Origin: Eubacteriales bacterium
Lineage (GTDB): Bacteria > Bacillota > Clostridia > Oscillospirales > CAG-272
Assembly: GCA_045128275.1 (NCBI GenBank)
Contig: JBGVRH010000102.1
Location: 360-64,359, forward strand
Length of the DNA stretch: 64,000 nt
Reading direction: 5' to 3'
In this document: positions 30,708-33,324 of the stretch, piece after piece
Numbering within the stretch: position 1 is the stretch's first letter
Layout of the letters: every line of letters starts with the position of its first letter
Translations under genes and position numbers: made by a program
Notes under the pieces: generated by a model
Seen by the model: only the letters and a program-made list of their open reading frames with translations
What the model was told of the DNA's origin: nothing
Database searches by the model: none

Positions 30708-30755
30708 GTGAGGAAACAGGGAGGAGGGGACAACCGGTGGTTGAGGCGTTTAAAT

Positions 30756-30980
30756 TGCGGTTTATCGGTCTGTGCCCGATAAACCGCTAATGAATAATGA
30801 AGTCGCCGCAAGCGGCTGATGAATAATGAATAATGAATAATTGTGGATGGAAACCTTCGGTTTCCCGCATTTTTTCAAATAATGGAGAAATCCGAAGGAT
30901 TTCAACCAAAATTATTCATTATTCATTATTCATTATTCATCATTCATTATTGGGTTTATCGGAACGATAAACCCAAATTT
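30756..30980. repeat. Nested palindromic repeat, family 1, copy D (largest AT-rich heptad arms)
   Basis: Order of parts: hairpin tgcggtttatcgg..ccgataaaccgc; arms (aatgaat)n; core ggaaaccttcggtttcc...aaatccgaaggatttcaacc; arms (attcatt)n; hairpin gggtttatcgg..cgataaaccc-aaattt. Confidence 0.9.
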
Positions 30981-31000
30981 GAAAATCTTCTCCCACCCCC

Positions 31001-31029: not shown

Positions 31030-31098
31030 AATAGATGAAACCAAACCAACGCTATGCCGTTTGACGGGTGCAGCTTACCCCGTCAGAAAGGAACACAT

Positions 31099-31971
31099 AT
31101 GATCGACTTCAAGACCGTCACCACCCCCACCTTCGGCCCCGGCGGCAACGGGGAGTGGTTCAAAAACGAGGGCGGTAAGGCCACCGTCCAAGCCCCCGGC
31201 TGGCTGAAAAGTAAAGGCCTCGATGCCTACGAGTACGAGGCGGGCAAGGGCATCATGGCCGGTGAGGGCGCGCTCCTCGCCATCGGGCAGAAGGCCCTGG
31301 AGCACGGCATCCTCATGTCCCTCCATGCCCCCTACTTCATCTCCCTGTCCTCGGTGGAGGAGGAGAAGCGTAACAACAGCATCGGCTACATCCAGAAGTC
31401 CCTCTGGGCCGCCGAGCTGCTGGGAGCGGATACCATCGTCATCCACAGCGGCAGTGCGGGCAAGATCTCCCGTGAGGAGGCCATGCGGCTGTCCTGCGAT
31501 ACCCTTTCCCGTCTCATGGAGACGGTCGGAGATACCCACATCCGCTTGGGCATCGAGACTATGGGCAAGCGCAACCAGCTGGGCACCCTGGATGAGGTCA
31601 TCGAGCAGTGCATGGTGGATCCCCACTTCTATCCCGTGGTGGATTTCGGCCACCTCAACGCAAGAGGTGTGGGCGGTCAGTTCCCCGACCGCGACAGCTA
31701 CCGTCGGGTCTTCCACACCATCGCGGACAAGCTGGGCGCAGAGTACGCCACTCATCTCCACTGCCACTTCTCCAAGATCGAGTTCACCGACGCGGGAGAG
31801 AAGCGGCACGTCACCTTCGAGGACACCGTCTACGGCCCCGCATTCGAGCCCCTCATGGAGGCCATCATCGTAGACAACCTCTGCCCCCGCATCATCTGCG
31901 AGTCGGACGGCACCATGGCGGAGGACGCGCTGGCCATGAAGCAGTATTGGCTGGAGCGCAGGGGCGAGTAA
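31099..31971 (+). CDS. Endonuclease IV (AP endonuclease family 2)-like TIM-barrel protein
   Basis: Motifs HAPYFISL, IHSG, GIETMGK, DFGH and HCHFS...GEKRH sit at the positions of the Nfo metal ligands. Start set at the ATG at 31099. Confidence 0.75.
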   Translation: MIDFKTVTTPTFGPGGNGEWFKNEGGKATVQAPGWLKSKGLDAYEYEAGKGIMAGEGALLAIGQKALEHGILMSLHAPYFISLSSVEEEKRNNSIGYIQKSLWAAELLGADTIVIHSGSAGKISREEAMRLSCDTLSRLMETVGDTHIRLGIETMGKRNQLGTLDEVIEQCMVDPHFYPVVDFGHLNARGVGGQFPDRDSYRRVFHTIADKLGAEYATHLHCHFSKIEFTDAGEKRHVTFEDTVYGPAFEPLMEAIIVDNLCPRIICESDGTMAEDALAMKQYWLERRGE

Positions 31972-32022
31972 GCCAAACAAAAAAGCGGCCTTCCCGCCGC
32001 TGTGAAAAATTCCGAAAAAGTA

Positions 32023-32051
32023 TTGACAAACCAAGCAAAGTGTGGTATCAT
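32023..32051 (+). promoter_or_regulatory. Strong promoter driving a non-coding transcript (candidate antitoxin sRNA)
   Basis: TTGACA (32023-32028), a 17-nt spacer and TATCAT (32046-32051), with TGG just upstream of the -10. No RBS or ORF follows. Confidence 0.6.
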
Positions 32052-32057
32052 AGAAGC

Positions 32058-32142
32058 GTAGGAGCTACCGGCAACGGTCACTTCCTCGTGTAAGTTAAAA
32101 AGATAACCGCACTTGTGGAAGAGGGGCGGTTATCTTTTTTTA
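32058..32142 (+). ncRNA. Candidate ~85-nt small RNA, 3'-overlapping the toxin mRNA (type I antitoxin-like)
   Basis: Bounded by the promoter above and by hairpin agataaccgc/gcggttatct plus a T-run at 32101-32141. No start codon with an SD. The 5' end is estimated only. Confidence 0.4.
32096..32142. terminator. Bidirectional rho-independent terminator shared by the convergent sRNA and toxin transcripts
   Basis: 10-bp stem 32101-32110 / 32127-32136, flanked by AAAAA (32096-32100) and TTTTTT (32136-32141). Confidence 0.7.
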
Positions 32143-32228
32143 CTGTTTAAGTAAGACAGAATAACAAATGCTAACGTTACGAGTTCGATCAAAAGATAGA
32201 TGAGCTCGCTCCATGTAACAAAGTCCAT
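32130..32228 (-). CDS. 32-aa hydrophobic peptide, type I toxin-like (holin-like toxin pattern)
   Basis: MDFVTWSELIYLLIELVTLAFVILSYLNSKKR. SD GGAGGGAGGTG lies 5-6 nt before the ATG (cat at 32226-32228). The stop is embedded in the terminator stem. The peptide has a single TM helix and a basic C-terminus. Absent from the ORF track because it is under 60 aa. Confidence 0.55.
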   Translation of the reverse strand: MDFVTWSELIYLLIELVTLAFVILSYLNSKKR

Positions 32229-32350
32229 TCGATCACCTCCCTCCATGCAAGCATTGAGGAAGGAAAAAGATTTCGACTTCCTCTGAAGGGAGGAAGCGAC
32301 CGCCGCCGTTCAGGCAACTCCTACGGGAAGCCTTTCGGTTTCCAACTCAT

Positions 32351-32379
32351 ATTATAGCACAAGATCTCACTATTGTCAA
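32351..32379 (-). promoter_or_regulatory. Consensus sigma-A promoter of the toxin-like peptide gene
   Basis: Minus strand reads TTGACA (32379-32374), a 17-nt spacer and TATAAT (32356-32351). Implies a 5' leader of about 115 nt. Confidence 0.65.
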
Positions 32380-32412
32380 CGGCTATCGCCGCAGTACACC
32401 CTTAAAAAAGCT

Positions 32413-33324
32413 ATGAATATCACCGACTTCCAATCCCTCACCCCCATCGATTACGGTTGGTCTGGGGACAAGAAATACTATGCCGTCACCCCCGACGGCA
32501 TCCCCTACTTCCTCCGCGTCACCTCCCGCCAGCGGGGCGATCGCTTCGCAAAGCTCTTTGACCTGCAAAAGGCCGTAGCCGCCACGGGGATCCCCATGTG
32601 CCTGCCCGTGGCCATCGGAGAGTGCGAGGAAGGGGTCTACGCCATCCATTCCTGGATCGACGGGGTGGATGCCGAGGCCGCCGTCCCCATCCTCCCCGCC
32701 GAGGTGCAGTACAAATTGGGCCGCGACGCAGGACAGTACCTCACCCGCATCCATTCCATCCCCGCCCCCGAGGATCAGCCCGATTGGGAGGCGCGGTTCA
32801 ACGCCAAGATCGACCGCAAGATCCAAATGTACGCCGATTGCCCCATCCATTTTGACGGGGATCACCACCTCCTCCGCTTCATTGAGGAGAACCGCCATCT
32901 GCTCAAAAACCGTCCCCAGACCTTCCAGCACGGGGACTACCACATCGGCAACATGATGCTCACCGATGCCGAGACCGATCCCAAGATCGTCATCATCGAC
33001 TTCGACCGCTACGACTTCGGAGACCCCTGGGAGGAGTTCAACCGCATCGTGTGGTGCGCGGGAGTCTCGCCCGTATTCGCTACGGGATTGGTGGACGGCT
33101 ACTTCGGCGTGGATGCCAACACCGCCGTTCCCATGGAATTCTGGCGGCTTCTGGCGCTCTACATCAGCAGTAATATGCTCTCCTCCATCCCCTGGGCGAT
33201 CCCCTTCGGGGAGGGCGAGATCCAAACCATGCTGAGGCAGGCAAGCGATGTCCTGTCCTGGTACGATAACATGAAAAACCCCGTACCCACGTGGTACGAT
33301 GCCGCTCTATCCCACAAAAAATGA
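32413..33324 (+). CDS. Aminoglycoside phosphotransferase (APH) / choline-kinase-fold family protein
   Basis: Catalytic loop HGDYHIGNMM and the metal-binding IIDFD motif. 303 aa. Confidence 0.85.
   Translation: MNITDFQSLTPIDYGWSGDKKYYAVTPDGIPYFLRVTSRQRGDRFAKLFDLQKAVAATGIPMCLPVAIGECEEGVYAIHSWIDGVDAEAAVPILPAEVQYKLGRDAGQYLTRIHSIPAPEDQPDWEARFNAKIDRKIQMYADCPIHFDGDHHLLRFIEENRHLLKNRPQTFQHGDYHIGNMMLTDAETDPKIVIIDFDRYDFGDPWEEFNRIVWCAGVSPVFATGLVDGYFGVDANTAVPMEFWRLLALYISSNMLSSIPWAIPFGEGEIQTMLRQASDVLSWYDNMKNPVPTWYDAALSHKK

Follow-up and report, generated by a model that had tools for sequence, protein, structure and literature searches.

A putative type I toxin-antitoxin module on a conserved RNA scaffold in gut Clostridia

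Here we analyzed a stretch of 64,000 nucleotides (nt) from Eubacteriales bacterium (NCBI GenBank assembly GCA_045128275.1, contig JBGVRH010000102.1, positions 360 to 64,359 of the forward strand), which at its full length we call the window. One of its intergenic regions holds a minus-strand gene for a 32-residue hydrophobic peptide and, facing it, a plus-strand small RNA (sRNA), and both transcripts are predicted to end in a single hairpin that contains the stop codon of the peptide gene. We propose, with a probability of roughly 0.7, that this locus belongs to the chromosomal type I toxin-antitoxin modules of the TxpA/SprG/BsrG ('Hol_Tox') kind, in which the peptide would be the toxin and the sRNA the antitoxin. 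A preliminary description of the window, made from the letters alone, had suggested a type I module with a convergent, 3'-overlapping sRNA, and the comparative evidence assembled here (selection, a conserved scaffold and family matches) speaks for that suggestion. The preliminary description did not mention the sRNA 5' hairpin with its anti-Shine-Dalgarno (anti-SD) sequence, the loop motif on the sRNA strand, or the replacement of the toxin cassette in a related genome (locus L126).

Results

The peptide gene is under purifying selection

The candidate toxin gene is an open reading frame (ORF) of 32 codons and a stop (Table 1), whose product has one predicted transmembrane helix (L9-L27) between an acidic N-terminus and a basic C-terminus, with a hydrophobic core of 19 residues and a hydropathy of 2.39. 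Relatives of the peptide were searched with a 40-codon in-frame extension of the ORF, and selection was analyzed on 15 distinct coding sequences of the window peptide class. Over the first 20 core codons, the ratio of nonsynonymous to synonymous substitution rates (dN/dS) is 0.14 at a dS of 1.18, and the variable columns fall on codon positions 1, 2 and 3 in the numbers 12, 4 and 19. Thus, the ORF is under purifying selection. Over the final nine codons, at the junction of ORF and terminator, dS is down to 0.13, and the codons S-Y-L-N-S (32156-32142, minus strand) carry 2 substitutions among the 15 sequences, as against a dS of ~1.2 upstream. These 15 nt lie just upstream of the terminator stem, outside it, and were free of any search pattern. 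The drop in dS, including that over the S-Y-L-N-S codons, points to a constraint at the RNA level over the end of the ORF; a pairing partner for the S-Y-L-N-S stretch was looked for and none was found.

An upstream ATG at 32246, which would give a 38-residue form, was rejected as the start, since it lies inside the Shine-Dalgarno (SD) sequence and is not conserved in relatives, and we therefore take the 32-codon ORF to be the gene. Contrary to the expectation of the preliminary description that gene callers would miss so short an ORF, it has been called as a 32-residue gene, with an identical peptide, on at least 24 public contigs, always beside an AP_endonuc_2 gene and with other neighbours that vary. 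The sole name that the peptide bears in any public source is 'hypothetical protein'.

The end of the ORF runs through a stretch of seven A (window 32133-32141, AGT AAA AAA AGA TAA), and in P0022, P0027, P0029, P0031, P0032, L049 and L072 the peptide reads ...KKDNR..., with one A fewer in the homopolymer and hence a frame shift that extends the peptide across the terminator. These variants could be sequencing errors or real variation in run length.

The promoter, a leader of about 115 nt (here ~116 nt) and the SD, as well as the single helix and the basic C-terminus of the peptide, are all present as first described, the promoter (32379-32351) matching the consensus at 12/12 positions, with an extended TG in addition. 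At least 10/12 matches are kept at this promoter in ~50 of 67 family modules. The leader folds stably and contains CUUCCUCCC, which is complementary to the SD (an inverted repeat of 10 nt at 90%). Two variations of the leader were seen in relatives. In L004 and L114, an insertion of ~70 nt, itself palindromic, lies at a point corresponding to about window 32302 in modules that are otherwise near-identical and have an intact ORF. In L023, L032 and L061, the toxin start is overlapped (UGAUG) by the stop of a very short upstream ORF in another frame, AUG-UUC-UGA, which suggests translational coupling or occlusion in some relatives; this upstream ORF is not present in the window copy.

Both predicted transcripts end in one bidirectional terminator

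The hairpin at which the two transcripts would meet has a perfect 14-bp stem (Table 1), and is flanked by T-runs on both strands, of 7 T on the plus and 5 T on the minus strand, in agreement with the U-runs noted earlier. Our terminator scan overlooked it only because its loop exceeds 8 nt. The preliminary description had rightly placed the stop codon inside the stem, and the span that it gave to the hairpin (32101-32136) was too short. Indeed, the toxin stop codon and the last ~3 codons lie within a stem that is common to the sRNA. With a single bidirectional terminator for the two RNAs, and the toxin stop inside it, they would be perfect complements over their 3' ~47-50 nt; this overlap, predicted from the geometry, comprises the terminator hairpin and its flanks as exact complements and is close to the ~45 nt estimated at first.

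Among loci that were found through the peptide, the stem is nucleotide-invariant in 18/18 cases and its invariance is independent of the search key, while the loop varies. Within the loop, the motif (U/G)UGG occurs in 70% of loops on the sRNA strand and in 0% on the toxin strand; its longer form UUGG(A/U)(A/C)G is found in 60-70% of the sRNA-strand loops and in none on the toxin strand, with GUGGAAG as the window version. YUNR-like motifs have a known role in the loops of antisense RNAs, and the (U/G)UGG motif, being YUNR-like, may by analogy take part in the contact between the two RNAs.

A conserved small RNA with a covarying 5' hairpin

On the plus strand, the promoter described earlier (TTGACA, a 17-nt spacer and TATCAT with an extended TG) is present with 11/12 matches; it is kept in relatives, including L003, in which the spacer has diverged, and scores 11-12/12 in nearly all of the 67 family modules. 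It would give rise to a putative antitoxin sRNA of ~86 nt. No ORF lies between this promoter and the hairpin, as had been claimed; the further claim that no SD is found there did not hold, given an SD-like AGGAG (32060-32064) at the sRNA 5' end, with no start codon after it.

A covariance model of the sRNA was built from relatives. It gives only one strong match in the window (32057-32146, 80.7 bits, E ~1e-16), which falls exactly where the sRNA had been predicted, and 107 confident matches among the fetched loci. In the alignment fitted to this model, compensatory changes are seen in 8/9 pairs of the sRNA 5' hairpin, and the covariation score of the hairpin is 0.120, compared to 0.098 in shuffles (0/500 reach it) and at most 0.081 in slid registers. 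It should be noted that RNAalifold recovered only the inner stem and the terminator from a sequence-based alignment, and that the outer stem required realignment with the covariance model, which leans towards the structure of the model. A metagenome scan seeded on the sRNA 5' domain gave 21 matches, about the number expected by chance, of which only 2 are real modules.

When the region was compared with Rfam at E up to 10, nothing came near a gathering score, the best matches being a terminator-only Thr_leader and OrzO-P, both noise. The sRNA likewise has no Rfam match in 20 other loci or in the whole window, including to riboswitch and leader families. The sRNA family is new to Rfam, and its lack of a match rules out any antitoxin family held there.

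The SD is predicted to be sequestered across the family

In predicted structures, the SD of the toxin mRNA is paired across the family, with a probability of being unpaired of 0.065, compared to 0.234 in shuffled leaders (p = 2e-13). In the window copy, the SD is also a predicted target of the sRNA. For 41 of 48 modules, the anti-SD-bearing segment of the toxin leader recurs, in the same sense, as the 5' domain of the sRNA of that module (z > 3), and in the window, sRNA nt 17-39 are predicted to pair with the SD/AUG region over 21 bp (-30 kcal/mol, z = -3.3, 0/100 shuffles). The anti-SD core tracks the class of the SD, GGGGGC occurring with GCCCUC, GGAGGUGA with UCACCUCC and GGAGGGAGG with CUUCCUC; class-level covariation of the core is modest, and cognate pairs score -14.9 kcal/mol, compared to -13.4 kcal/mol for non-cognate pairs, with a permutation p ~1e-4 that is uncorrected for relatedness. 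Other cognate pairings were tried and are unsupported. For the loop, the partners tested were the sRNA 5' domain, the leader in trans and its own leader in cis (p = 0.22, 0.20 and 0.02, uncorrected); for the sRNA 5' domain, the partner was the leader (p = 0.13).

These data bear on the possibility that the plus-strand RNA is not aimed at the peptide mRNA, and is instead a trans-acting sRNA or a terminator-controlled leader of the APH-like gene at 32413-33324. The flanking genes share the strand of the sRNA, whose conserved 5' hairpin is not part of the antisense overlap and pairs with the toxin mRNA in a way that is not robust family-wide, all of which would suit an independent RNA. However, what constantly accompanies the sRNA at ~100 loci is the peptide ORF with the shared terminator, and not any one downstream gene; L003 lacks the APH gene, and L011-L013 have a sigma-factor gene in its stead; the toxin gene in antisense makes up the 270 nt from the terminator to the start of APH; and no riboswitch or leader family of Rfam matches. 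We consider an independent RNA very improbable, and retain the sRNA as the putative antitoxin.

One RNA scaffold carries many peptide classes

In the alignment of relatives, the hexamers of both promoters are retained next to spacers and start-site regions that diverge; conservation also covers leader, ORF, sRNA body and terminator stem, and the neighbouring sequence diverges. The conservation check proposed in the preliminary description thus came out in favour of the ORF, both promoters and the hairpin stem. An exhaustive profile search among 1.84 billion proteins places the window peptide class in ~20 representative clusters. The RNA scaffold is far more widespread, as the same terminator stem was found in at least 119 contig stretches of a species-level genome collection, nearly all of them from Clostridia, Eubacteriales, Oscillospiraceae or Ruminococcus metagenome-assembled genomes (MAGs), with several genomes supplying two or three contigs. 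The ORFs that end in or just before the stem fall into many classes, and their products are short and hydrophobic, with ...KKR as the usual C-terminus. Every peptide class faces a near-consensus promoter, a hairpin domain GGAGC-ACCG-loop-ACGGU-GCUUCC, a variable linker and the shared terminator, and blocks of the toxin leader are conserved across toxin classes.

The AP_endonuc_2 neighbour is stable in diverged relatives, in contrast to the APH gene on the other side. No DNA match to the module was found in phage and plasmid collections, and in IMG/VR only one contig has a complete module (L159 2749-2920, IMGVR_UViG_3300029906_000187; sRNA 64.4 bits, peptide MAYVTWNDLLQVVTLAFVILSCYINSKKR).

A single locus, L126 (JAFULU010000238.1), captures the replacement of one toxin by another at the orthologous site. 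Its flanking genes, promoters, leader 5' half and sRNA 5' domain are 88-100% identical to those of the window. Across the segment that corresponds to window 32262-32095, a class B toxin cassette of ~40% identity stands in for the SD-proximal leader, the ORF, the loop and the linker. The preliminary description had regarded loss of the ORF amid conserved flanks as telling against the module; at L126 the flanks are conserved and the original ORF is indeed gone, and its place is taken by another intact toxin, which speaks for the maintenance of some toxin in this position. The exchange also suggests that the loop and the overlap travel with the toxin, and that the 5' hairpin is generic.

Paired modules or sRNA copies 300-600 nt apart were observed in L133 (2894-2980 and 3475-3564), L094, L092, L077, L071 and L090, and L022 has two modules or sRNA copies ~4.8 kb apart. 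Some pairs hold different toxin classes, as in L133 (MYITWEALF... and MGEYITWDDLIK...). In one MAG, a Gut-1 RNA (RF01706, 62 bits; L110 2096-2177, minus strand) lies a few hundred nt from a module, probably by coincidence.

Genomic setting of the module

The module occupies an intergenic region of 441 nt (31972-32412) with a G+C content of 40-50%, compared to the window average of 59%. Within the 2.5 kb that were scanned, 4 promoter-like sites were found, where 0.9 were expected. Over the window, with both strands counted, 15 sites match at least 11/12 promoter positions and 10 of the 15 are perfect consensus. Near-consensus promoters are therefore fairly common in the window, so that a convergent promoter pair alone is only mildly improbable and not decisive; that the elements of the module are not due to chance follows from their conservation in relatives. 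No second copy of the peptide or the sRNA was found elsewhere in the window.

A second terminator sits between the sRNA promoter and the stop codon of the AP_endonuc_2 gene, where it would stop toxin read-through ahead of an antisense run into that gene. Elsewhere in the window, two promoters with 12/12 consensus matches lie back to back and divergent within ~50 nt (61251, minus strand; 61302, plus strand). A further low-G+C intergenic region (30750-30985) holds a nested palindrome with AATAATG heptamer repeats and flanking small hairpins, comprising a perfect 25-nt inverted repeat, 76 nt apart, and a 57-nt arm pair at 84%; it has no Rfam match.

Table 1. Features of the module and its flanks, with positions counted in the window
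Feature	Position	Strand	Details
AP_endonuc_2/nfo-like TIM-barrel gene	31054-31971	+	flank
Second terminator	31978..32001	-	AGCGGCGGGAAGGCCGCU then UUUUUUG; found by the terminator scan for the minus strand alone; kept in relatives
sRNA promoter	32023..32051	+	-35 TTGACA (32023-32028), 17-nt spacer, TG-extended -10 TATCAT (32046-32051); 11/12 matches
Putative antitoxin sRNA	32057..32143	+	~86 nt; fold z = -4.4
sRNA 5' hairpin	32061-32085	+	GGAGCU-ACCG-GCAA-CGGU-CACUUCC
sRNA anti-SD	32079-32087	+	CACUUCCUC; in 3' arm of 5' hairpin
sRNA linker	32088-32096	+	
sRNA terminator hairpin and U-run	32097-32141	+	
Bidirectional terminator	32097..32139	both	perfect 14-bp stem 32097-32110 / 32126-32139; 15-nt loop 32111-32125
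Candidate toxin ORF	32130..32228	-	MDFVTWSELIYLLIELVTLAFVILSYLNSKKR; 32 codons and stop; stop codon 32132-32130
Predicted second target site of sRNA 5' domain	32229..32253	-	upstream of SD to just before AUG; RNAduplex 9 + 12 bp
SD	32244-32234	-	GGAGGGAGGTG (also given as GGAGGGAGGUG)
Leader anti-SD copy 2	32263-32256	-	CCUUCCUC
Leader GAGGAAG	32283-32277	-	
Leader segment carrying anti-SD copy 1	32325-32288	-	CGUAGGAG...GCUUCCUCCC
Leader 5' GNRA-type hairpin	32343-32326	-	compensatory changes in relatives
Toxin mRNA leader	32229..32344	-	~116 nt; fold -88 kcal/mol, z = -5.05; SD paired with leader
Toxin promoter	32351..32379	-	-35 TTGACA (32379-32374), 17-nt spacer, TG-extended -10 TATAAT (32356-32351); 12/12 matches
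APH/kinase-like gene	32413-33324	+	flank

An alternative reading takes the whole unit to be a quasi-palindromic small mobile or recombining repeat, with ends that function at the DNA level and with an ORF and 'sRNA' that are incidental. In keeping with this, the two halves of the module form an imperfect inverted repeat about a centre that is palindromic, its G+C content is below that of its surroundings, and it is multi-copy in genomes and exchanges cassettes. Yet the codon-position bias and the low dN/dS indicate selection on the protein; promoter hexamers, SD, anti-SD and hairpin covariation are features of RNA or expression; the orthologous position is stable in related genomes; and no target-site duplications or transposase genes were seen, in a search that was not systematic. 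Such a repeat is the most improbable of the explanations that we weighed, and we return to a type I module as the preferred one.

Links to known toxin families

Models derived from known toxins match a number of peptides of the RNA-defined superfamily. Hol_Tox (PF16935) matches 14/42 superfamily peptides (E up to 1), PepG1, the model of a type I toxin, matches 6/42 (best E = 4.4e-7) and ComI matches 4/42. When ten peptides of other classes on the same RNA scaffold were scanned individually, three reached 24.0-26.2 bits against Hol_Tox, whose gathering score is 23.3. The superfamily profile moreover matches PDB 7NS1, the SprG1(31) toxin of Staphylococcus aureus (E = 7.9e-4), and SprG1 was itself found via its homology with TxpA (PMC8309996). 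We treat the locus as a putative divergent member of the TxpA/SprG/Hol_Tox kind.

For the window peptide itself, the best Pfam match is DUF7535 (E = 0.065, 38-residue form) and the best NCBIfam match is a model of ribosomally synthesized and post-translationally modified peptides (RiPP; E = 0.1). A RiPP or bacteriocin precursor was dropped as a candidate, there being no significant match and no maturation genes nearby.

Several observations weigh against the toxin-antitoxin assignment, which itself relies on homology and architecture. The window peptide matches neither Hol_Tox at E up to 10 nor PepG1 (NF041589) and other family models, so that the holin-like resemblance seen at first applies to family members and to the class as a whole, not to the peptide directly. 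In hhalign, the window class (A1) aligns over its full length with the Hol_Tox-matching classes (A7) at 96.5% (E = 8.5e-10), a link less secure than this figure, because the profiles are short, hydrophobic and share a KKR end that stems partly from ascertainment. Similarly, the terminator stem was a search key, so that its invariance throughout the superfamily is partly built in. Sequestration of the SD by the leader, as had been proposed from the window, stands for the family and not for the window copy alone, for which 27% of shuffled leaders do as well. Family-wide there is no support for the extended pairing that the sRNA 5' domain would make with the SD/AUG region (median z = -0.4, with 19/48 best sites overlapping the SD), and the anti-SD core is weakly specific for its cognate (median rank 23/65, relatedness uncorrected). 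Finally, the overlap here is confined to the shared terminator (~50 nt), unlike in TxpA/RatA, SprG/SprF and BsrG/SR4; the 3' overlap of TxpA/RatA-type systems is longer.

As an alternative, the gene could encode a small, conserved membrane protein whose role is not toxic, such as modulation of a membrane complex, and the convergent RNA could be an ordinary antisense regulator of its level. Coding selection, a conserved sRNA and SD sequestration would equally fit tight control of such a protein, and the locus lies stably beside AP_endonuc_2 in diverged relatives and is essentially absent from phage and plasmid collections. Against this, family members match models that derive from experimentally toxic peptides (PepG1/SprG1 and the Hol_Tox model), and the occurrence of several paralogues per genome, together with class replacement at one site, fits interchangeable toxins better. 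Double sequestration of the SD combined with a strong, constitutive-looking promoter is moreover the usual signature of type I toxins (PMC8594479). On balance we find a non-toxic membrane protein unlikely, if the most credible of the alternatives, and favour a toxin-antitoxin module.

Discussion

Based on our results, we propose a working model for the module, for which the mechanisms of bsrG/SR4, sprG1/SprF1, Fst/RNAII and SprA1/SprA1as (PMC8309996, PMC8594479) serve as a guide. The minus-strand promoter would yield an mRNA of ~250 nt, whose structured leader would pair the SD through one of its two anti-SD copies, and from which the 32-residue peptide with its single transmembrane helix would be translated. 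The convergent plus-strand promoter would supply the sRNA of ~86 nt. First contact would presumably be made by the two terminator loops, which are exact complements and of which the sRNA loop carries the YUNR-like (U/G)UGG. The duplex formed by the 3' overlap would then mark the toxin mRNA for double-strand-specific cleavage, comparable to bsrG/SR4, in which the antisense duplex leads to cleavage by RNase III (PMC8309996). In the window copy, the sRNA 5' hairpin might also pair over ~21 nt, from the SD up to the AUG, and thereby block translation. If the sRNA were lost, translated peptide would enter the membrane and could cause growth arrest or death.

More tentatively, and with the odds rather against it than for it, the superfamily might represent a distinct design in gut Clostridia. 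Under this proposal, a conserved and recombining RNA scaffold would accept unrelated-looking toxin cassettes by swapping; its parts would be a pair of consensus promoters, the leader and a bidirectional terminator, invariant and enclosing the stop codon. The 5' hairpin of the antitoxin would be a trans-acting copy of the leader anti-SD, so that a generic SD block operating between paralogues would be combined with a cassette-specific contact through loop and overlap. The result would be a hybrid of the par/Fst layout with a TxpA/SprG toxin, in a new RNA family of more than 100 members.

One RNA scaffold thus marks such modules in at least 119 stretches, mostly from uncultured gut Clostridia and often several per genome. 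This is a large family new to Rfam, and it occurs in gut Clostridia, a group for which type I systems are described in reviews as not found (PMC6563280). If the proposed function is true, the covariance model would permit systematic annotation of toxins and sRNAs in gut metagenomes, and the family would offer a well-populated case of type I diversification, with cassette swapping on a fixed scaffold and with generic as opposed to specific RNA contacts. It could also provide compact RNA-controlled kill switches or regulators for commensals that are poorly accessible to genetics.

Comparison with known type I systems

T1TAdb holds 24 families of type I systems (PMC8594479), and in most Clostridia other than Clostridioides difficile, known type I toxins have been searched for without success (reviewed in PMC6563280). 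The C. difficile systems (for example CD2517.1/RCd8 and the prophage-borne CD0977.1/RCd11) resemble the present locus in general features, namely their Clostridia hosts, hydrophobic toxins and lysine-rich C-termini (PMC6563280, PMC7699646). They adjoin CRISPR arrays or reside in prophages and plasmids (PMC5961336, PMC6563280, PMC7699646). In the literature surveyed, no type I toxins are reported for the gut Clostridia that carry the modules described here.

In S. aureus, SprA1as acts via its non-overlapping 5' domain on the ribosome-binding site and start codon of its target. A block of this kind is predicted for the window copy and is not robust across the family, and the peptide here is unrelated to PepA1. 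The two systems are alike in that the antisense RNA overlaps the 3' end and that the interaction lies outside the overlap in SprA1/SprA1as (PMC8594479).

The Fst/RNAII system (par, Enterococcus faecalis pAD1) is similar in its convergent RNAs, its single bidirectional terminator and its complementary loops able to make the first contact. Direct DNA repeats in par render the two RNAs complementary at their second contact, whereas the repeat here is inverted, and the sRNA and the leader are therefore alike, not complementary to each other, the sRNA being the same sequence as the leader and both being complementary to the SD. The peptide here is also without the APxxxG motif of Fst. The second contact of Fst/RNAII lies near the ribosome-binding site, outside the overlap, and the stop codon, which in our module is within the terminator stem, differs in its position, as T1TAdb lists Fst/RNAII as not overlapping the ORF (PMC8594479).

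The systems named in the preliminary description, TxpA/RatA and BsrG/SR4, proved good leads to the relatives of this module, given the shared layout and the profile links to PepG1 and 7NS1. In contrast to TxpA/RatA (Bacillus subtilis), SprG/SprF (S. aureus) and BsrG/SR4 (B. subtilis SPbeta), the modules here come from gut Clostridia that are uncultured (MAGs of Oscillospiraceae, Ruminococcus and the like), and they sit on the chromosome, not in prophages. All share with the candidate module a short toxin whose single helix lies between a polar or acidic N-terminus and a basic C-terminus, an SD that is sequestered in the toxin mRNA, and a convergent antitoxin over the 3' end of the toxin mRNA and the end of its ORF (T1TAdb layout, PMC8594479).

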